Assembly: GCA_002269645.1 (NCBI GenBank)
Contig: NIVC01000355.1
Coordinates: 122,956 to 186,955, forward strand
Direction of reading: 5' to 3'
DNA: 64,000 bases
Source: Macrostomum lignano
Taxonomy: Eukaryota
Position numbers and translations under genes: made by a program. Positions within the stretch are counted from its first letter, which is position 1; every line of letters begins with the position of its first letter. Under the pieces are notes generated by a model, which saw only the letters and a list, made by a program, of their open reading frames with translations, ran no database searches and was not told where the DNA came from. This document shows, one piece after another, positions 39,640 through 64,000 of the stretch.

Positions 39640-52900
<13,261 letters not shown>

Positions 52901-54830: not shown

Positions 54831-55751
54831 GTCAGGTGTGTTGTAGATTGCGTCAGTAAGGTTTGTAGTTGGTAGTTGGCATATTTGGCTAGGTTTCAAT
54901 TCCTGCTTAGATGGGTTCTAGCTCTTTCGTTTTAAGAGCTTTAAAACTTTTTTCTCTTGTCTGAAACGCTTGAGCTCCATATAGGCTTCACGATCACAGG
55001 ACTACTAAGGGCCGGCAGATCCGTTGATTTTGCGAAGGTCCGTCGGGCTGATGTCGGCCTCTAGCACCGCGGCAAGGTGCTCCCTCGGGGTGTACACCCG
55101 GGGTGTACCTCCAGCGGGGTGGGCGTCCAGCGAGTGTACCTCCAGCGGGGTGGGCCTCCTGCGAGTGTACATCCGGCAGGGTGGGCGTCCAGCGAGTGTA
55201 CCTTCAGCGCATGGGCCTCCCTCGGGGTGTACATCCGGCGGGGGGATTCCCGCCCCTCCCACCAATGTCGTGTGCACGCGGTTAGTGTAGGAAGGAAACC
55301 CCCGATGCTGACGCAGCCCTGTACACTGAGCAACCGGCCCCCATGCGGGGGACAGAGAGCAGCCCTGTAGCTGGGGACAGAGAGCAGCCCCTGTAGCAGG
55401 AGGGGTAGTGCGTGGAGAGCCGCCATCCCCCTGTAGCAAGGGACAGATAACAGGCGGCCCCCTGTAGCAGTATGAGGTGGGGTACAAAGAGACACGGGGT
55501 GCTGGGACAGAGAGTGCGTGGAGGCACCCTGCGCTGCCCTGGCATGTCGCAGCACGCGGCGTGGACAGAGAGGCAGTATGAATCACACCCCCCGCGGAGA
55601 GAGCGGCCCAGTCTGGAGGCGTGGGACAGACCGGCGGTGAGTGATAGAGAGCTCCCCAGGCTGCAGAGGACTTGAAAAGAAAAAAACACGTATTTTAGTT
55701 GTTTCAGGTTCAGGCCATCCGGCAAACAGAGCAAAGCTCTCCAACAGTGTT

Positions 55752-56381
55752 TTATTTAGCATAGACTACGGGGTAGCGCCCCAACACATTAGCATAGTAG
55801 CGAACAGATGCGTTCTGCAAGCAATTAACAATCAAGTAGGAGTAGGGCTCCCTAGTGGCGTCTTCGTACATTTGAACAAAACTTTTTGGGTTAGCGGGGA
55901 CAAGCTGCTTTGCAATATGGGCGACTGTACTAACGTCCCGTACATTGCGGAACAATACAAGGTAGTTTGCGTTAAGGGATTGAGTGCGGTGCTCCTTGCC
56001 CTTGGCAAACAGGTTTTGTACAAGGTACCAAAGCCGGAATCCCACATGGCTGACTTTGCGAGTGAAAAATGCGGTAAAAGCAGCGTTTTTTTCCATGGCT
56101 TGCATTTGATCATCGACAACGAGTAGAATATTCGGAGCGGGAACATAGGTTTCAGGGTTAAATGTAGACGAGCGAAAATTGACAGGGTACGGTAATTCAA
56201 ACAGTTCCGGGTCTGGATAGTGCCCAAACCAATCAACGCGAACAGGCTTAGGGTCCTGAAAAAACTCGTTTCGCAGCAATTCTTTAACAAGAGTTGTTTT
56301 TCCGCTCTGGTTAACACCAGCAAAAATCGCCGAAGTATTTGGAGCAAACTTTAGAGCGTCAGGATCAATTGTTTGGTACAT
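55752..56381 (-). CDS. Genome-packaging ATPase (FtsK/A32-like)
   Basis: Walker A GVNQSGKT, Walker B LLVVDD, and FT..VSH...LVQNLF.KG...RTQSLNANYLVLFRN.RD. The first ATG is at 56381 (the ORF track starts at TTG 56405). Confidence 0.93.
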   Translation of the reverse strand: MYQTIDPDALKFAPNTSAIFAGVNQSGKTTLVKELLRNEFFQDPKPVRVDWFGHYPDPELFELPYPVNFRSSTFNPETYVPAPNILLVVDDQMQAMEKNAAFTAFFTRKVSHVGFRLWYLVQNLFAKGKEHRTQSLNANYLVLFRNVRDVSTVAHIAKQLVPANPKSFVQMYEDATREPYSYLIVNCLQNASVRYYANVLGRYPVVYAK

Positions 56382-56415: not shown

Positions 56416-56853
56416 CTATTTTATTTGTAGAACATGTTTTCGAACCATCAAATCATTTTCAAGCAGATTGGTAGAGTAACATTCCCTTAAAATCTTTTCA
56501 ATCGACAACCCCTCTAAAAAGTGCTTTTCGGCCACAAAAATCACATGCGGCCCACACGCTACACTTAGAGGGTGTTGAACAGGGTGGCGATTCATAGCAA
56601 CAGGTGAATGTACATGCATCGAGATCCAAGCCGAGAGCAATTCCGGCACGGGTTCAATACACAGGGGGTCAAAAAATGTCACACTCTTATCATCGTGTAG
56701 GCAAATCAGTCCCCAGTGGGTGCCTGGCAGATTGCCCGTGTCAAAATTAATTACATATGCAGCAGGGTAAACAGGTGCAGGAATTCTGTCAAGAGGGCAA
56801 ACGCGCACTTCCACAGGTAGTTTTAAACGTTCCAAAATTTCCAACGTGTTCAT
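56416..56853 (-). CDS. Adenain-like cysteine protease (Maverick PRO), 145 aa
   Basis: VINFD...PGTHW (His), FFDP (Asp), Q...S.ACG (oxyanion Gln, Cys). The start overlaps the MCP stop (ATGA). Confidence 0.9.
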   Translation of the reverse strand: MNTLEILERLKLPVEVRVCPLDRIPAPVYPAAYVINFDTGNLPGTHWGLICLHDDKSVTFFDPLCIEPVPELLSAWISMHVHSPVAMNRHPVQHPLSVACGPHVIFVAEKHFLEGLSIEKILRECYSTNLLENDLMVRKHVLQIK

Positions 56854-58133
56854 ACGTAGTCCAGAATGGGCTGGCGGCCTCTAGTGATTTGCACCGCGTT
56901 GTCAAAGTAACCAAACACCAAAACGTTAATCCCGGCAGGTAGGGCTGCAGAAAACTTTATCTGTAGGGTAAGATTCCCTCTCTCGCGAGGCATGCTATGT
57001 CCACCCAGTTCCATGTCGGGCATTAGATTCCACGCAAATAAGCAGTAACCAGCGCGATAATCCGAATATGACAGGTCAATGTCCAAATCGCGATTCATTT
57101 TCCCTAGGCTCTTAAACAGCATGGCGTATTCGCGAGCATAGTTTTGGGCAGCGAACCTTGGAGTGAATGGTTGACCGCACAGACTGACCCCGTCCTTGTA
57201 CAGGGCCACACTGTCCGCCCCAAATGGCTCGAAATTGAACGGATTATGGGTGGCCACCCCGTTATATGCGGCACTATTGACCATTCCCATAATGACAAGT
57301 TTAGGCTTCTGCTCCGGGAAAATATTATTGATTGACACGTCGCGAACTCCTACAGCGACAGAGGTGTTGTGTACAACGAGGCGCTCGATGGGGTAGACTG
57401 CATTCTGAGTTGACAGCTGTTCTTCAATCTCCAAGGCCAGTTGGGGGTTAGCCTTTACCCGACGAACGTGTAATTTTGCACTTTGAAGAACCAACTTTGC
57501 ATCAACCCCTTCGGCGTGATTCTCTACAACGAATCCCGAATTTTGCAGAGTGAGCGTAACCACCATATCAGTGTAGGGCAGCAGCATACGATCGTTGGTG
57601 ACAAAAAAGTCGAGACTAAGAGGGCCATACAGATGAAATGTTCGAGAACCGGCAGCCATCGCCTTGCGAGTTACAAAGCCAGGATTTCCAACCGCAGCCA
57701 TTTGACCCCCAGCGTCTTTAGCGTAGCCCATCATCCGCAGTTGGTTAGACTTTGAATCAGACCCATAACTCAAGCATGTACGAATGTACGCCTTGTAGGC
57801 ATGGTTGTTGTTGCTAGACTCGATATGTGTACCATTTATGGAAAGAGACACGTTTTTGAACATGGTCTCCAAGAGGTAATTGATTGGCGCCACGTTTGAA
57901 TCCGCCGCCAAATCGGCTCCATTAGCTCTCTTAATACAACCTTTAATCTCGAGATCAATGTCATTAAGATCGACAAACGTCTCGCCGCCCACAATTCTAA
58001 ACTCGACCACACTCGCATTTTCGACGCTGGCAACCGGGTGGATTTCTTCAGTAGTTGAACCTACAGCGGCAATCTGGTGGGCTCGAGGGGCAAAGAGCTC
58101 AAACTCGGACTTTGTACACAGACACTCGGACAT
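56850..58133 (-). CDS. Major capsid protein (hexon-like double jelly-roll), 427 aa, intact
   Basis: Maverick MCP motifs: C.KSE..LF, HP......VEFRI.G..FVDLNDI.L, PINYLLETMF, AYKAYI, FPEQKPKLVIMGMV...AYNG....NPFNF, G.LTLQIKF...L....VLVFG.F. Confidence 0.92.
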   Translation of the reverse strand: MSECLCTKSEFELFAPRAHQIAAVGSTTEEIHPVASVENASVVEFRIVGGETFVDLNDIDLEIKGCIKRANGADLAADSNVAPINYLLETMFKNVSLSINGTHIESSNNNHAYKAYIRTCLSYGSDSKSNQLRMMGYAKDAGGQMAAVGNPGFVTRKAMAAGSRTFHLYGPLSLDFFVTNDRMLLPYTDMVVTLTLQNSGFVVENHAEGVDAKLVLQSAKLHVRRVKANPQLALEIEEQLSTQNAVYPIERLVVHNTSVAVGVRDVSINNIFPEQKPKLVIMGMVNSAAYNGVATHNPFNFEPFGADSVALYKDGVSLCGQPFTPRFAAQNYAREYAMLFKSLGKMNRDLDIDLSYSDYRAGYCLFAWNLMPDMELGGHSMPRERGNLTLQIKFSAALPAGINVLVFGYFDNAVQITRGRQPILDYV

Positions 58134-58162: not shown

Positions 58163-58507
58163 CTAATTGAAGCGGGGCTTTTTATTTATAGTGCTGAAAA
58201 TGTCTGAATTGAGACGCTTCGGAGCCTTTTTTCTTCTTCGTCCGCTACCCCTTTGGGTAACCGTGTCTTTAAAGGCGTCCTTGGCAGCCTGAACAGAATT
58301 GCGCAGGACAGACTCTTTCAAATTGCCTCCTTGCTCGAGGCTATCGTTAACCGTAGTTGCTAGGGCTCTAGTACCATGACGGAGAACGTTTTTACCAAAA
58401 CTCTTTAGAATTGGCAGCGCGAAGCGGGCAATGCTTCCAAACAAACCGTTGCCCCTCTGGGCGCCCGCGAAAACAGGCAAAGCTCCACCAATCAGAATAG
58501 AAGGCAT
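58163..58507 (-). CDS. Conserved Maverick core-like protein (adenovirus pVII-like precursor), 114 aa
   Basis: PVFAGAQRGNGLFGSIARFALPILKSFGK N-terminal motif, basic C-terminus QRGSGRRRKK, and several adenain-type xxGG / QxGxG sites. Confidence 0.75.
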   Translation of the reverse strand: MPSILIGGALPVFAGAQRGNGLFGSIARFALPILKSFGKNVLRHGTRALATTVNDSLEQGGNLKESVLRNSVQAAKDAFKDTVTQRGSGRRRKKAPKRLNSDIFSTINKKPRFN

Positions 58508-58547: not shown

Positions 58548-58555
58548 TATTTATA
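58548..58555 (-). promoter_or_regulatory. TATAAATA box (also penton stop and AATAAA), 48 nt upstream of the core-protein ATG
   Basis: One of a set at 63938-63945, 63001-63007, 61860-61867, 60826-60833, 58183-58190 and a degenerate copy at 56422-56429. Confidence 0.55.
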
Positions 58556-59243
58556 GCTTCTTTTCGCGGATGTTAACGCTCAAGACGGTCTTGCCCCTCA
58601 TTACTTTTGTCATATCCCTGCCCATATCATCGTTAATTTGTACTTCAATAGTTTTGAATGGGTGCTTAACCAGTGGTAGATATGCCGGATTGACAAACTC
58701 GTAGTACTCGCGACCGCCCTGAACTTTGGGATCCATCGGTATAGCTCCCAACAGAGGAACTTTAACGTCTCCTACAATAACAGAATCGACTATGCTCGAA
58801 TAGATGTACATTGTTTGTATTCCACCGGTTAATTCCATTGATGCGTTTGCGTAGAAATCCGATATACCGAAAAATGGGGTTGTATAATCATGCTCTGGGA
58901 AACCAAGCACGCTGGTCAAGCGCCCCAGCCCAAACATGTAATCCGTCGAGCCAATGTAATAACACCTATTCGTAACTTCGCTGTATCTGAAAAAGTCCGT
59001 TCTAGGTGCTGGAGCCGCTATGAGATCTTTGATATGTTTCCAAATTATATCGTTGAGTTCCTCCACCAATCTTTTAGGTGTACTATAGTATCCTCCCTGC
59101 ATAAAAAAGACTTGATCAGACGCTGCGTTAGTAACTTGTCTTATTATTGGAGCATGGTCCATTGACTGTACAGTCGGTTTCTCAACAACTGCGGTCCCAG
59201 TGAAAAATGATTCATGGATTCCACGTGGGTTCCACGTGGCCAT
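58551..59243 (-). pseudogene. Minor capsid protein (penton), N-terminally truncated
   Basis: G.YSTPKRLVEELN, MYIYSSIVDSVIVGDVKVPLL, F.NPAYLPL...F.TIEVQINDD.G. The usual N-terminal F..TLPSN..LP..W.VAL segment is absent and AT-rich DNA lies upstream. Confidence 0.75.
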
Positions 59244-59244
59244 G

Positions 59245-60289
59245 TGGAATTTAAATGTTTCCTTAATTTTTGCAAATTAATGACTTAAAGATGACATAAT
59301 GGTATGCAAAGTATTTTTTATGCATTATTTTTTAATTTTTACTGTCCTAATGTTGATGTGGATTTTACAAGGAATTCATGAGAAATAAGCGTATATTGAT
59401 TCAACATGGAATCCACTTCGATAAAAAACTGTGATACACCACATTCAGACGTTTTTATGAAATTACTATAATTAATTATTACATTTATATGCTTTTAAGT
59501 AAAAATTAATATCTTAAAGCTAAATTATAATCAGAAAATAAGATACTGTTTGTTAAATAATAAAATAGAATGACGTTTCGTGCTTTTTAAGATTATTTTA
59601 TATTCGTCATGTCTTGCATGGTTCAAGGCCTTGAAAGATAAATTGCCTTGTTTATGGCTATTTAAGCACCTTAAAAATTTTAGTAGACGTAGCCTATTTA
59701 GGCAATAACTTATTTAAGGCCATGGTCCATGATTAGAAATTAGATAAATCAGTAATCATAATAGGCCTAATACTTTTGCCAGTTTTTAAAATCCATCCAT
59801 GAAAATTTATTTAGGCTTATCCAAGGAACCATGGGTCCATAGATTGGCTACTCATTTTAAACTTAAATACTTTCGAAGTTCAAATCTTAGTCCTACCTAT
59901 AGTCCTAGGCCTAGGCCTTCTATTTATGTATGCTTATTAATATTAGGCCTTTTAAGCTAGCCTATAACTATCAATTCCCCTATTTTATTAGGTTACTAGG
60001 CCTAGCTTGACTTTGTGAATGTGACTTCAATCTAGTTAATTGTTAAAAATCTACATTTTGATTTTCTTCAAGCCTATTAGCATCTTTTGGCTTGTTGCAT
60101 TTTGTAAAAACAAATTATTAAATTATAATAATTCTTTGCAAACACTTGCAACCTGTTTTTGGCAAAGCTAGCCTAGCCAGATCCCTAAGGTTGCTATTAT
60201 AAATAAATAATGATTATTGTAAATTTGATCTGATTTAGGCCAAGTCCAGAATTTAATAGCATAGGGCATAGCTTTTAAGATTAGGCCTA
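59245..60289. other. ~1.05-kb AT-rich non-coding filler replacing the integrase 3' half and the penton 5' end
   Basis: Abrupt composition change; rich in TAGGCCTA motifs like host intergenic DNA in this window; no ORFs. Confidence 0.65.
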
Positions 60290-60691
60290 ATGTTTAGGCG
60301 GTGCAGGGAAATCATTCGCCAACATTGACTCAAACGCTGCGGGGGTATCACTCTTTAGTTTAATTGCCCTACAAAAAGCCTGCTTACTAAGCACATCAAT
60401 AACAACTAGTATATATTTATGTCCGTCATTCCAACGTTTGTATCGCGACATGTCCATCAAATCGGCTTGTAGAGTTTCCATGAATCCTCCCGACATTACT
60501 TTTCCCGTTTTAAATGTCCTGTTGACTCTCCGGTGACGGGTGTAACTCGGTTGGGTTTCTAGCCATTCCCTGGTTTGGCGTCTTGTCAGGTTTGGCGCCA
60601 GACGTTTGGCCTCCTGATAGACACGGGCAGCATTTGAAAAAGCGGCGGCTCCTTGTTCGTAAACTCGACGAAGAGCGGTTAGAGCCCTCAT
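60287..60691 (-). pseudogene. Retroviral-type (Maverick) integrase, C-terminally truncated
   Basis: EWLETQPSYTRHR, TLQADLMDM (first Asp), NDGHKYILVVIDVLSK. It stops at PPKH*, exactly where the LQTD.G.EF motif should follow. Confidence 0.88.
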
Positions 60692-60789: not shown

Positions 60790-60867
60790 GACCGCCGGGC
60801 GCGCGTTATGTTTGGACTAGGGTTCTATTTATAAAGAGTCACGTATTTTTTCTTTTCTCGGGTGGTC

Positions 60868-61449
60868 TTAGTTGGTAATCGTGATATTTACCCACCCGGT
60901 ACCTTGATCGACAAGTTTGGGCATAGCATTTACACCTTTGTTGCGCGTGGTCGTTAAATCGCGGGTGTCTGTCGCAATTGTGTGCTCATATTCATCGCGG
61001 TAATCGTCGGTACCAACCATATGGTCAACCTTCTTTTCCTCCACAGGGAGCTGTTTCCGACCGAGCATAGACATTGGTATACGGGCCTTGTCTAGCAGAG
61101 CCCAGAAAGCGGTCGAATATTTCGGGTGATTATTAGTGTTGGTGGTGACGGCTTGTAGAAGATCAAAAACGTTGCTGCCACCCCAAGTTTCACCATCAAA
61201 AACGACTTCCCACGATTGGTTGTAATTTAGGCTGGGGTGCTTTTCTGTTAGTATATTCCATATACGTTGTTGCCTATCAGAAAATAGCTGCTTTGTCGTC
61301 TTTTGGGGTTTTACTTTAGCCAATTGGGTCTGTAGCTTTGCATTGTACTCTACAAGTTTTTCGTACTCCGATTTTGGGGCAATTTCTCGCGGAGTACCCT
61401 GTCTAAGCTGATTGAATTCCTCCTCGGGGACCACAACGTACTTGTCCAT
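60868..61449 (-). CDS. Conserved Maverick/adintovirus ORF of unknown function (usually upstream of integrase)
   Basis: M.KYVVVP N-terminus and the W.V.FDGE..GSNVFDLL....HPK...F..LL....IP..LG motif. The ATG lies 2 nt after the upstream stop. Confidence 0.7.
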   Translation of the reverse strand: MDKYVVVPEEEFNQLRQGTPREIAPKSEYEKLVEYNAKLQTQLAKVKPQKTTKQLFSDRQQRIWNILTEKHPSLNYNQSWEVVFDGETWGGSNVFDLLQAVTTNTNNHPKYSTAFWALLDKARIPMSMLGRKQLPVEEKKVDHMVGTDDYRDEYEHTIATDTRDLTTTRNKGVNAMPKLVDQGTGWVNITITN

Positions 61450-61451
61450 TT

Positions 61452-61841
61452 TCAACGTCGTTGTCCTAGCAGACCACCAAACAGTCCAGTGATTAACGGT
61501 GCAGCAATCTTGGCGAGAATTGGTAGGAATCCTCCAACTTGAGGGTCCGATAGTATCATATTCTTCTTCCTATTTATAGACAGTTTTTTGTCGGCCATGT
61601 CATGCAGGGCTTCTCTATAACGTTTCAACCTTGCAAACTGTCTAGGGGATAGATCGATATTGCCCTTGAGTACATTGTGGCTTAACTCGCACAGACACTG
61701 CATCAACTCATTATCGGCTCCCCTAATAATGGCCCTCCTTCGATGTGGTCGCGCGTCACCGAGCTCCTCTAGCTCGCGACGGCAAGAACAAAGACGAGAA
61801 ATTCCGTTTGTCATTATTAAGGTGGTAAGCATTGCGTGCAT
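61452..61841 (-). CDS. Conserved Maverick pX/pVI-like protein with a C-terminal amphipathic peptide (start at 61841 or 61814)
   Basis: L..L....P..R..II..AD.EL...LCEL..NVLKGNI.L...L.RY...L motif and terminal QVGGFLPILAKIAAPLITGLFGG. Confidence 0.75.
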   Translation of the reverse strand: MHAMLTTLIMTNGISRLCSCRRELEELGDARPHRRRAIIRGADNELMQCLCELSHNVLKGNIDLSPRQFARLKRYREALHDMADKKLSINRKKNMILSDPQVGGFLPILAKIAAPLITGLFGGLLGQRR

Positions 61842-61879
61842 ACATGTGCATATTTTGTTTATTTATAAGCAAAGCATAA

Positions 61880-62396
61880 TTAGAGTTGCAGAATAGCAGT
61901 CACGTGGTCGTACATTTTACACAGTTCGTCATAGTTTCGTATTCCTAGGAACACTAACCGACCATTCTTTCCGCACAGGGCACTTGGCCTTGCGGAATGG
62001 GGACTTTATTACAAGCCCATTGAATACCTCACTCTCCCACTCAACCCAGCGCGAGCTCGAGTTGGCAAGGCGGAAAAAGTTTGGCTTAACATTAACTTCT
62101 GCACGATAAGTACCGGTAGTGATAACAACAGAGTTTGGTTTACATTGAGCAAAAAGACGCAGCACATCGTTGGTTGATTGGCAACCAAAAACAATGGCAG
62201 ATAATGAACGTTTGAAAAAGTTTATTGTACACTTTCCGATCCTCAGGTTGTACAATGCCCGGGGTCTATGAAACGTTCTAGCGCGCGCCCAGTCCAAGTT
62301 CGGTAGGTGGTTCCACCTTGCGCAAAACACCCTGTTTACGCACACGACGTTCTGCAAGCGGTTTTTTCGGTTGCTTTTGTTTCCGCTCAGCTCCAC
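61880..62396 (-). CDS. Divergent TATA-binding protein (TBP)-like gene, interrupted by a 1-nt frameshift at ~61984
   Basis: LQNVVC...LRIGKCTINFFKRSLSAIVFGCQS and WESEVFNGLVIKSPFRKA, then in the +1 frame SALCGKNGRLVFLGIRNYDELCKMYDHVTAILQL*. Motif spacing matches both TBP repeats. No in-frame ATG. Confidence 0.65.
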
Positions 62397-62956
62397 CAGC
62401 TCCGCGCTTGCGTCCTACCTTGATTTTTAACGGTGGAATCCAGTAGCAGCGGTCAAACGCCTGCTTGGGAGCTTCTATGAATTGCAGTTGTTGAATTTTT
62501 GGCACCGCGGTTAGAACCGAGTCGTGAATCACCGCCGTGTCTAGGGCGAACAGTACTCTATAGTAGCCCGTCTTGTTCTTGTAGTCGGTGCACAACTTGC
62601 CGCTCTTGTCGTACATTTTAAAGTCGTGAGCCAATCCGAATGCAGCGCTGTCGCAGCCAAAAGTGGGGTTGTACCCAATAGCGCCATTCCTTGGATAGAG
62701 AGCTGGTGACACACGGAATTAACGCTTCTGGTATGCAGCTCTCCAAGTGCTTTTGGGAAAGAATGATGAATTCGCGGCCTTCATTGTCGGTTCTCACACC
62801 CTTGACAATCAGTACGGGCGTCGCATTGGCAAGATAGAGAGGGCCCTGTTCGTCGTACTCAATGTCGTACGTCTCGGTTCCGTTGTAGCTTGGACCTCTC
62901 GACTTGAGAGAGAATAGGTCGATCCTAACACTATTGTAGTCTTGAACGGTATCCAT
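62278..62956 (-). CDS. Putative OB-fold ssDNA-binding protein with a basic tail, split by a frameshift at ~62720
   Basis: ORFs 62618..62956 and 62278..62712 join by removing one A (GCG TTA [A] TTC CGT). YDIEY..PLYL, FKMYDKSGKL and YRVLFALDTAVI...PKIQQLQF resemble T7-gp2.5/NCLDV-type SSBs (by-eye). Confidence 0.4.
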
Positions 62957-63000
62957 GTTGCTGCTGTGCTGAGAGTGGGTCTCGCACCCTGAGCGCCTCC

Positions 63001-63312
63001 TTATATACCCTTGGGCGGAGGGTGGGGTGGCTGGGCGTTTTTGTTATAGTCCTTCTTTAACGACACTTTCCGGTGTTGGAAATCCGGAAAAATAAACCTT
63101 TTGTTTCGATCTTCTGGTCGAGGGGTTTGAGGCGTGTCGTTAATGCAGCTGCAGTGAGGGTTGATAGTCAACTTCGCTAGCACTGGTCTACTGTGTTTAG
63201 GTCGCCAAATCCTTTGGTGTTCCGTCCACGAGGGAGCAATCGGCTGGTGATTCCGGTACCGTATTTTCTCACGATGATCCTCTTGTAATATTGGGGCAAT
63301 TATCTGCTCCAT
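63001..63312 (-). CDS. Hypothetical Maverick protein, 103 aa
   Basis: ATG-started ORF overlapping the upstream ORF by 13 nt and ending in a TATATAA element. Confidence 0.5.
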   Translation of the reverse strand: MEQIIAPILQEDHREKIRYRNHQPIAPSWTEHQRIWRPKHSRPVLAKLTINPHCSCINDTPQTPRPEDRNKRFIFPDFQHRKVSLKKDYNKNAQPPHPPPKGI

Positions 63313-63557
63313 TCTTTGAAGATTGCTTTGAAATGCATCTTGTCTCTAAAGTAGTAGTCAATTCGGGCATCTGTATATTCTTGGGTGCTGTAAGGCCCTT
63401 GCCCAATTTCGTCTACCTCGACATTAAAGGTGACTAATCGTTCGGGAATTGGTTTGCCGTGACAAATGCATAACCAGTCTGTGGACTTTTTCAGGGTCTC
63501 GTACTCTGCCCTTTCTTTGCTCGATAAAAGCGGGTAGTCTCGAGAAATCCAGCTCAT
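63300..63557 (-). CDS. Hypothetical Maverick protein, 85 aa
   Basis: The ATG overlaps the upstream stop (ATGA at 63554-63557); protein-like composition. Confidence 0.55.
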   Translation of the reverse strand: MSWISRDYPLLSSKERAEYETLKKSTDWLCICHGKPIPERLVTFNVEVDEIGQGPYSTQEYTDARIDYYFRDKMHFKAIFKEWSR

Positions 63558-63757
63558 TCCTCTGACTCGTCAGATTCGTCGAGAAAGAAATAGTGGAAGA
63601 AATTGTCGACTCTATTCTTTTCAACTGCACAAAGTATTTTGTCTGACAGGTGAAATTCGCAGTCTCCTTTTACGTACAGGCGCTTCCCGTCGATAACTTT
63701 GATAGATGCGCCGCCTCCGAGATCGTAATCTGTGCAGCTAGTGCCCAGAAATTTCAT
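63554..63757 (-). CDS. Hypothetical Maverick protein, 67 aa (MKFLGTSC...DESDESEE)
   Basis: The ATG at 63757 overlaps the TGA of the upstream ORF (ATGA); acidic tail. Confidence 0.5.
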   Translation of the reverse strand: MKFLGTSCTDYDLGGGASIKVIDGKRLYVKGDCEFHLSDKILCAVEKNRVDNFFHYFFLDESDESEE

Positions 63758-63906
63758 TCGATGCCATTGTGCTCGACTAAACACGGCTCCTGGACAGCTA
63801 CAGTTTTGACAGTGGATGCGGAAACGCGGTTGTTTGGGTCCCAATATCCCACTTCCAGCACTGCGTTGTCAACGTGGGTGTACACTATTTCCGATTGCCA
63901 GTACAT
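63754..63906 (-). CDS. Hypothetical Maverick protein, 50 aa (MYWQSEIVYTHVDNAVLEVGYWD...GIE), not in the ORF track
   Basis: The ATG is 39 nt downstream of TATAAATA (63938-63945) and the stop overlaps the next ATG. Confidence 0.45.
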   Translation of the reverse strand: MYWQSEIVYTHVDNAVLEVGYWDPNNRVSASTVKTVAVQEPCLVEHNGIE

Positions 63907-64000
63907 TTCGATATTGTTGAGAAATACCAATTTTATTTATTTATAGGGCCGTCTGAACAGATTTCCAACCATTCCCTCCACTGTAAGAACGGTTCTCTCA

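Follow-up and report, generated by a model that had tools for sequence, protein, structure and literature searches.

A stretch of 64,000 nucleotides of the Macrostomum lignano genome (GCA_002269645.1, contig NIVC01000355.1, here C355:122956-186955, reaching the contig end; this whole stretch is called the window) carries a Maverick-like element with a hidden TBP-like gene. The gene almost certainly encodes a divergent TBP homologue, which is under purifying selection in two element families named A and B. Two features are unusual: the TBP is probably part of a spliced fusion, and the element is apparently one segment of a bipartite Maverick. The preliminary description of the gene, made from the sequence alone, had missed the absence of a start codon, the probable second exon and the lack of the polymerase gene pPolB in the element. 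As a whole, the data are in our opinion explained best, with modest confidence, by a spliced TBP-fold switch for late genes of a polymerase-less Maverick that forms one segment of a two-segment virus.

The TBP-like sequence of the window is distributed over two minus-strand frames, a stop-to-stop frame at 62414-61932 and a second frame at 62005-61883 encoding the C-terminal end, as had been described. Siblings were collected by a DNA search of the genome in which 40 of 66 candidates were scored and 30 loci fetched, the window among them. Of the 29 siblings, 20 contained an unbroken TBP-like frame of 178 codons; in one the TBP part was intact but continuous with the upstream frame, another had lost an internal segment in frame, and seven were broken elsewhere. 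The tail in which the window frame ends, already suspected to be non-conserved, is used by none of the 29. The window copy is indeed frameshifted; however, the break is not an extra A at 61984/61985 as proposed, but a small frame-shifting deletion near 61978, recognized by comparison with the natural siblings (28 of 29 differ from the window there; the remaining one, L024, has a larger deletion at the same spot). The frameshift may be an assembly error, because the window lies at a contig end, gap openings outnumber mismatches in its alignment with one sibling (15 versus 13 over 2,740 aligned bases), and the frame is unbroken in contig C5162, which holds the same insertion site (flank 96% identical). 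A different deletion at nearly the same place in contig C2210 (flank 99.9%) counts against such an error.

A natural unbroken family A copy matched the Pfam TBP profile (PF00352) with E = 9.5e-5 and 22.6 bits at a cut-off of 22.9, and the NCBIfam TBP profile with E = 1.3e-4. The relative P0003 exceeded the Pfam cut-off with 24.6 bits; no Pfam TBP match was obtained with the family B protein or with the two window pieces taken alone. Eighteen of 19 matches at E ≤ 10 in a PDB sequence search were TBP chains (best E = 0.0034), counting one named only ECU04_1440, which is a TBP. Family B shares 75% nucleotide identity with family A and gave 21 near-full-length matches in the genome; two outside proteins show 62-64% identity, and a profile search across 1.84 billion representatives yielded 5 matches. 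The four-row alignment of families A and B with the two outside proteins was used for an AlphaFold2 model (pLDDT 63). With this model, all 38 rows listed by Foldseek down to E = 0.0037 were TBP-containing entries, and VIA ranked TBP first with Z scores of 6.6-7.5, the first 27 rows all being TBP (best row: Z 7.5, root-mean-square deviation 2.8, 83 aligned residues). Giant-virus TBPs topped the viral structure library. Profile, PDB and fold matches thus bear out the assignment of a TBP-like gene to a Maverick-like element.

TBP has four Phe positions inserting into the minor groove of DNA. When aligned with cellular TBPs by profile (probability 53%, 122 columns), the protein had the Phe residues of NFF and EVFNG, noted earlier as retained, in two of these columns, one in each lobe. 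In the second C-lobe column Gly or Cys is present, and the first N-lobe column, situated at the alignment edge, contains no Phe; the full set of four is therefore not present. Both C-lobe glutamates contacting TFIIB, as defined in the passages of PMC7221094 on TFIIB/TFB contacts, are kept in 4/4 close homologues and align with host TBP. The N-lobe is about 13 residues short and lacks the basic helix patch for eukaryotic regulators, a loss also reported for viral TBPs in that part of the same paper. Selection was estimated from families A and B, for which dN/dS was 0.076 as compared to 0.9-2.5 in control frames. Judged by these residues, the protein appears to be a divergent homologue and not a canonical TBP: it resembles cellular and archaeal TBPs (PF00352) in the two-lobe saddle, one inserting Phe per lobe and both TFIIB glutamates, and differs in its identity of 16-18% to host TBP, the loss of two Phe, the shortened N-lobe helix region, the lack of an own start and the predicted fusion to a single-stranded DNA (ssDNA)-binding domain.

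Near the head of the TBP-like frame no conserved ATG was found in families A and B alike. The frame overlaps the 3' end of an upstream open reading frame (ORF) of 226 amino acids in family A and 236 in family B, which in the window copy is frameshifted around 62680-62720. After codon 180 of this ORF (codons at 62956-62419) a donor-like site in phase 0 was present in 36/36 distinct copies, and just before NVVC an acceptor-like site, also in phase 0, in 34/36; this donor is the best donor-like site common to both families. The stretch between them measures 67 nucleotides in family A and about 196 in family B and cannot be aligned; the predicted intron, if retained, encodes the first part of a tail, rich in Lys and Arg, of the protein from the upstream ORF. 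Furthermore, four outside homologues of the upstream protein from other datasets (46-56% identity) cease to align at the same Ile-Lys-Val, followed by Gly, Arg or Cys, the codons of which all have a middle G corresponding to the +5 base of the donor consensus; all four end in a shifted reading of the TBP frame. They are known as proteins only; a search of viral and metagenome contigs for related loci yielded no relative of the upstream gene. From these conserved signals, a splice joint between the upstream gene and the TBP region is predicted; the TBP-like gene is probably a second exon, and we consider a spliced ssDNA-binding/TBP fusion fairly likely. The similarity of LQNVVC to LQNIVS of TBP has to be read accordingly: NVVC follows the acceptor, whereas LQ is encoded by the conserved splice-acceptor-like hexamer and is therefore possibly coincidental.

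A TBP saddle made as a stand-alone protein is unlikely. It would be started by a leader AUG trans-spliced to the acceptor, by a TTG, or by a +1 ribosome shift. The acceptor stands at phase 0, so that a leader AUG would be in frame, and flatworm leaders end in AUG and can supply a start according to the relevant part of PMC9851317. A TTG before the acceptor is conserved and called as the start in P0002, and most family A and family B copies show a frame offset of +1. Stand-alone TBPs with their own ATG exist in families C and D. Family C comprises complete pPolB-bearing Mavericks with AGTAGTAG ends; its TBP of 187-190 amino acids overlaps the end of a presumably exonuclease-like ORF (L070:8328-8897 and many other loci). 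These points are opposed by the conserved in-phase donor just upstream, which families A and B share and which the protein pattern indicates for four more homologues, as well as by the middle part, which varies from 67 to 196 nucleotides with no shared slippery site in the alignment.

For the domain encoded upstream, the gp2.5/CP312R group had been guessed before structures were compared. The top four of 16 VIA rows were African swine fever virus (ASFV) CP312R (Z 6.3, root-mean-square deviation 5.1, 143 aligned residues), T7 gp2.5 (3.6), DUF2815 (3.0) and Enc34 single-stranded DNA-binding protein (SSB; 2.9). With a model of pLDDT 48, Foldseek gave no match at E ≤ 0.001; the protein had no Pfam or PHROG match and no usable ESM Atlas match. 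On the basis of this low-confidence model, the upstream gene likely encodes a gp2.5-type ssDNA-binding domain. The tail of gp2.5 is acidic; here it is basic, or would be replaced by the TBP saddle upon splicing.

Promoter-like boxes were compared between the elements. The box TATAAATA occurs at seven coding-strand and no opposite-strand sites in each of families A (9,202 nucleotides) and B (8,540 nucleotides), with a mean of 0.2 in shuffled sequences and 0/200 shuffles. It lies mostly 26-57 nucleotides ahead of a start codon and precedes capsid- and packaging-side genes; three sites, conserved between the two families, are located within the coding sequence of the gene upstream. A different box, TATATAAG, precedes the ssDNA-binding/TBP gene. 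It was also found in 9/9 polymerase-bearing elements of a type described below, ahead of a PC4-like gene in the three inspected; these elements contain three TATAAATA sites in 87 kb. Family B has a second TATATAAG produced by a partial duplication upstream of ORF171 (L046:9548, L047:239). Family C, with its other TBP lineage, has no TATAAATA and instead a TTAAGA-type box, a pattern picked after inspection, which precedes most family C genes including the TBP gene (11 versus 3.4 expected, 0/200 shuffles; 5 and 3 of 200 in two other copies).

These data suggest the following mechanism. An early TATATAAG promoter would drive a single transcript of the ssDNA-binding/TBP gene. Unspliced, it would yield the ssDNA-binding protein with its basic tail; removal of the weak 67-nucleotide intron would fuse the ssDNA-binding domain to the TBP saddle. 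We regard this scheme of one transcript and two products as reasonably probable. Host machinery would transcribe pPolB, PC4 and the ssDNA-binding gene early. The saddle would then bind TATAAATA ahead of the integrase, capsid and packaging genes, its two retained glutamates would recruit host TFIIB and RNA polymerase II, and the ssDNA-binding half would tie late transcription to replicating templates, as in other DNA viruses; we give these joint events slightly better than an even chance. Finally, both segments would be packaged and integrated through supply in trans. A role of the TBP in transcription of the element's own genes had been proposed before, and the TATAAATA box common to the downstream genes fits it.

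Alternatively, the TBP fold may not activate element genes but aid replication or packaging or act as a TFIIB decoy, TATAAATA being read by host TBP. We regard this as improbable. In its favour, the protein lacks two of the four Phe and part of the N-lobe, its predicted joining to an ssDNA-binding fold suggests a part in replication, and none of the 15 TFIIB matches in the genome lies at the element loci examined. TATAAATA fits what we take to be the ordinary TATA consensus, so host TBP could serve it. On the other hand, the difference in TBP lineage between families A/B and family C is accompanied by a difference in box, TATAAATA is nearly absent from the polymerase elements, and both glutamates contacting TFIIB have been retained.

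Several observations weigh against a spliced, DNA-binding late switch. The predicted donor is weaker than the donors of the pPolB introns, a pyrimidine tract is absent, and the exact matches at donor and acceptor (15 and 14 nucleotides) are no longer than several runs within the coding parts. Contigs of X1, X2, X3 and X19, aligned to one natural copy, span the predicted intron unspliced and contain no splice joint in the element; as such contigs drop minor forms and may be DNA, they say nothing about its absence. The expected fold was found; however, TM scores for the TBP matches were 0.35-0.43, the lobes of the model are mis-set, both structure models are weak and all Z scores remain below 8. 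The Phe and N-lobe losses suggest that DNA binding could be weak or altered. Modelling of the TBP domain together with a fragment of host TFIIB, for which no alignment was used, scored 0.01 and speaks neither for nor against contact. TATAAATA was chosen after inspection, 4/7 family A sites also contain AATAAA, and its agreement with the presumed TATA consensus has been mentioned. Ravarani et al. reported, in the passages of PMC7221094 on this subject, that viral TBPs mostly diverge at TFIIB sites.

Virus-encoded TBP folds are known from Nucleocytoviricota, and TBPs of giant viruses were the closest viral matches by structure. An RNA polymerase of their own is supplied by giant viruses. They often encode their own TFIIB as well (PMC7221094, same passages). 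The logic proposed here is similar to that of the herpesvirus TBP mimic (ORF24/BcRF1/UL87), which directs host RNA polymerase II to late promoters according to the part of PMC12529657 dealing with it. ORF24 is far larger and was modelled there as incompatible with TFIIB binding, whereas the saddle described here is minimal and has kept the TFIIB glutamates.

The window element itself works like half of a Maverick and not like a standard member. Seven capsid-type elements were read end to end, namely C181, C633, C110, C2210 and C4 of family A and C175 and C996 of family B. They are about 10.5 kb long with inverted repeats of 655-807 bp, and 6/7 are flanked by a 6-bp target duplication, C996 being rearranged. 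They encode an integrase and putative capsid proteins, protease and ATPase, but a match to pPolB or PC4 was found in none of the seven. Here as elsewhere, genome searches scored the best candidates only, and marker searches give lower bounds. A hunt for a helper, in which 15 further pPolB loci were fetched, yielded 11 loci of one type, one other complete Maverick and three others (C506, C166, C2506). Elements of the frequent type, here called polymerase elements, are present at C491:285031-295129 (L111-L112), C173, C1263, C1131, C41, C558, C2757, C307 and C1158. Both ends were found in 9/11; these nine are 9-10 kb long, one being rearranged, and all have 6-bp duplications. Pfam identified pPolB in them (E = 7e-15 and 4e-13), mostly together with a recognisable PC4-like gene; within the nine two-ended elements no integrase, capsid, protease, ATPase, SSB or TBP match was obtained. 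Canonical introns interrupt the pPolB gene of these elements at four common positions. The C1263 element also carries a dUTPase. Among the other pPolB lineages, C506, C166:111645 and C2506 (L099-L104), none of the tested marker genes matched.

The two classes share their ends. The terminal 23-mer of the window element has 23 occurrences in the genome, of which 19 are continued by a polymerase-type repeat and 4 by a family A repeat; the reversed control has none. Of eight end variants seen in family A, three are present in identical form on polymerase elements, and the distinct first 8 bases of family B are common to a second polymerase family; beyond about base 31 the terminal repeats are mostly class-specific. 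Hence, gene content of the two classes is complementary and their ends are shared. Within the first 30 bases of the terminal repeat (window 55001-55031), positions 8-26 differ strongly from copy to copy in a mosaic fashion, while the repeat interior is conserved; 21 variants were seen, and the two ends of one element sometimes differ. The capsid class was counted by hand on about 66 contigs and the polymerase class on about 67 (lower bounds). Each class probably supplies the other in trans, as polymerase elements integrate without an integrase and capsid elements multiply without a polymerase. More tentatively, and with somewhat less than an even chance, we propose an animal polintovirus with an integrating double-stranded DNA genome in two parts. 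One segment would carry the intron-split pPolB and the PC4-like gene, the other the integrase, capsid and packaging genes plus an alternatively spliced ssDNA-binding/TBP fusion coupling replication of the genome to late transcription; terminal sequences would be exchanged between segments, and two co-diverged pairs would be present in this genome. Two points speak against such a virus. Co-divergence is rough, R1-R2 proteins of the polymerase class (44-71% identical) being more diverged than A-B proteins (75-87%), and a complete helper element may exist, at the pPolB loci C506, C166 and C2506 or beyond the best candidates scored in the genome searches.

In place of a two-segment virus, capsid- and polymerase-type elements could be independent non-autonomous derivatives relying on an unfound complete Maverick or on family C. 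Non-autonomous derivatives with these ends do exist, searches for markers are lower bounds, and complete pPolB-bearing Mavericks are abundant in the genome. This is nevertheless doubtful: ends and repeats of family C share nothing with those described here, and its pPolB can barely be aligned to that of the polymerase elements. The complementary genes have stayed intact in both classes and, as far as tested, are under purifying selection, and no complete element was found among 16 marker-carrying elements read end to end. Furthermore, match lists place the two classes together on two contigs only, 82 and 460 kb apart, and two matching pairs of end types exist. C56, C2210 and C4 were considered as complete elements and rejected, as none contains pPolB. 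C56:643541-661960 (L142-L143), 18.4 kb with these ends and no marker gene, and C251:23499-26861, 3.3 kb with these ends, are probable non-autonomous derivatives.

With published Mavericks, Polintons and adintoviruses (Barreat and Katzourakis 2021, PMC8097293; Starrett et al. 2021, PMC8502044) the elements share long inverted repeats, 6-bp duplications and an integrase gene, together with putative ATPase, protease and capsid genes. They differ from those treated in the relevant sections of PMC8097293 in several respects: pPolB is absent from the capsid-type element, its length is about 10.5 kb compared with 12.7-24.6 kb, the ends start with ACTACT or ACTACG in contrast to AGTAGT, AGAGAG and ACACAC, and the partner pPolB contains introns whereas intact vertebrate Mavericks were reported to be intronless. 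Bidnavirus genomes likewise consist of two segments whose termini match, one of which bears a pPolB of Polinton origin. As described in the portion of PMC4061559 (Krupovic and Koonin 2014) on their genomes, however, bidnaviruses contain ssDNA, and their pPolB segment also holds a capsid gene of parvovirus type, whereas here Maverick capsid, integrase and pPolB genes are split over two integrating elements. No parvovirus-type capsid or helicase ORF was recognised among the ORFs of three polymerase elements, and the capsid module resembles that of Mavericks. The likeness to bidnaviruses would thus be one of analogy and not of membership.

It had also been inferred that this lineage captured TBP. 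A capture peculiar to it was not borne out. A Pfam TBP search of the genome gave 150 matches, all scored, among 330 candidates; most lie in repeated elements and several beside pPolB. At least two other lineages of TBP are found on polymerase-bearing Mavericks of this genome, and two further TBP-like lineages occur beside Maverick-type genes (L087:4389-4982; L105:1101-1715, the latter weak and with no Pfam match). In addition, Starrett et al. 2021 used the label 'TBP' in the legend of Fig. 5 for a MELD element, in the section on non-animal datasets (PMC8502044); this, too, is a TBP-like gene on a Polinton-type element, the passages on it contain no analysis of the labelled gene, and the term is absent from one supplement file. 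A term search found no TBP in PMC11161782, PMC10748475, PMC8097293 and the Widen preprint, and a literature search by title and abstract start, with incomplete coverage, returned no study of a Maverick TBP or a bipartite Polinton. A one-off capture is thus not supported; TBP is apparently a recurring, little described accessory gene of Mavericks.

In a tree of 14 rows, none of which was dropped, families A and B and four outside proteins fell on one side of a 100/99 branch and families C and D on another (98/99). Neither group nests with host TBP or the host TRF2-like gene. The phylogeny suggested earlier therefore separates the element proteins from both host genes, but cannot name the donor, because it comprises 14 rows with a midpoint root and low identities. 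Capture of host TBP by one lineage, with the window ORF as a separate copy disrupted by a single additional base, is very improbable: fold assignment and two Phe were right, but the break lies elsewhere, a start codon is missing, identity to host TBP is 16-18% with no nesting, and other Maverick families carry other TBPs. Host TBP and its TRF2-like paralogue are each present three times with their cores in single open frames (L058, L064; C70, C713, C1301; C350, C3090, C3513), which suggests duplicated assembly regions.

For the question of how Mavericks time and drive the expression of their capsid genes, this genome offers several natural pairs of TBP lineage and promoter box. If the split is real, Mavericks can exist as two co-dependent segments; among descriptions of such a state we found only that of the bidnaviruses, ssDNA viruses derived from Polintons. 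The split would also explain how polymerase-less and capsid-less 'defective' Mavericks can be abundant and intact, and in surveys that require both pPolB and integrase of a Maverick either half would be overlooked or wrongly labelled. The presence of introns in core genes contradicts the view of intact Mavericks as intronless and hides genes from ORF-based annotation.

Table 1. Features of the capsid-type element in the window (positions in the window; strand as read).
Feature	Position	Strand	Remarks
Terminal inverted repeat	55001..55669	.	sole element end inside the window; first 23 nucleotides identical to ends of polymerase elements
Putative packaging ATPase	55752..56381	-	209 aa; Walker A, weak AAA matches
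Putative adenain-type cysteine protease	56416..56853	-	145 aa; weak Peptidase_C48 match (E = 0.12), gene order
Putative major capsid protein	56850..58133	-	427 aa
ORF114	58163..58507	-	possibly basic core-protein-like
TATAAATA	58183..58190	-	within ORF114, ahead of major capsid gene; kept in family B
TATAAATA	58548..58555	-	ahead of ORF114
3' remnant of putative minor capsid gene	58551..59195	-	label from gene order
Unrelated DNA, ~1.1 kb	59196..60295	.	replaces 3' part of integrase and 5' part of minor capsid gene
Retrovirus-type integrase	60296..60691	-	5' third only; 359 aa in siblings
TATAAATA	60826..60833	-	ahead of small ORF and integrase
ORF193	60868..61449	-	distant match to equivalent gene of pPolB-bearing family C
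ORF129	61452..61841	-	conserved in family B
TATAAATA	61571..61578	-	within ORF129, ahead of ORF193; kept in family B
TATAAATA	61860..61867	-	ahead of ORF129
TBP-fold coding region	61880..62351	-	predicted second exon; 157 codons in unbroken siblings; frameshifted near 61978
Upstream gene	62278..62956	-	226 aa in unbroken siblings; likely gp2.5/CP312R-type ssDNA-binding domain
Predicted intron	62352..62418	-	67 nucleotides, phase 0 to phase 0
TATATAAG	63000..63007	-	ahead of ssDNA-binding/TBP gene; kept in family B
ORF171	63001..63557	-	conserved in family B; frameshifted in window
ORF117	63554..63906	-	family A only; frameshifted in window
TATAAATA	63938..63945	-	ahead of ORF117

The capsid, protease and ATPase labels are based on gene order, weak Pfam matches and matches of 28-32% to a pPolB-bearing family; the putative ATPase is 32% identical to the ATPase of a pPolB-bearing Maverick. 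For the putative capsid protein, sequence searches of Pfam, NCBIfam, PHROG and PDB gave no match. Its relatives are named 'F54H12.2-like', a label which we take to mark the Maverick capsid gene, and one of them is fused to an rve domain. The integrase of a sibling matched Pfam rve with E = 1.9e-9; that of the window is truncated by the insert at 59196-60295, which has a 91% similar counterpart in C2210. ORF171 found only unnamed clusters at 0.90 in the ESM Atlas, with low recognition. Beside one repeat, family A carries a Fic-domain gene (Pfam E = 6.6e-14; L039:922-1698) together with ORF117; family B has neither. Just outside the element, at 46457-52900, the window contains a host gene for a kinase with Gln/Ala-rich stretches, presumably of DYRK type judging from sequence motifs.

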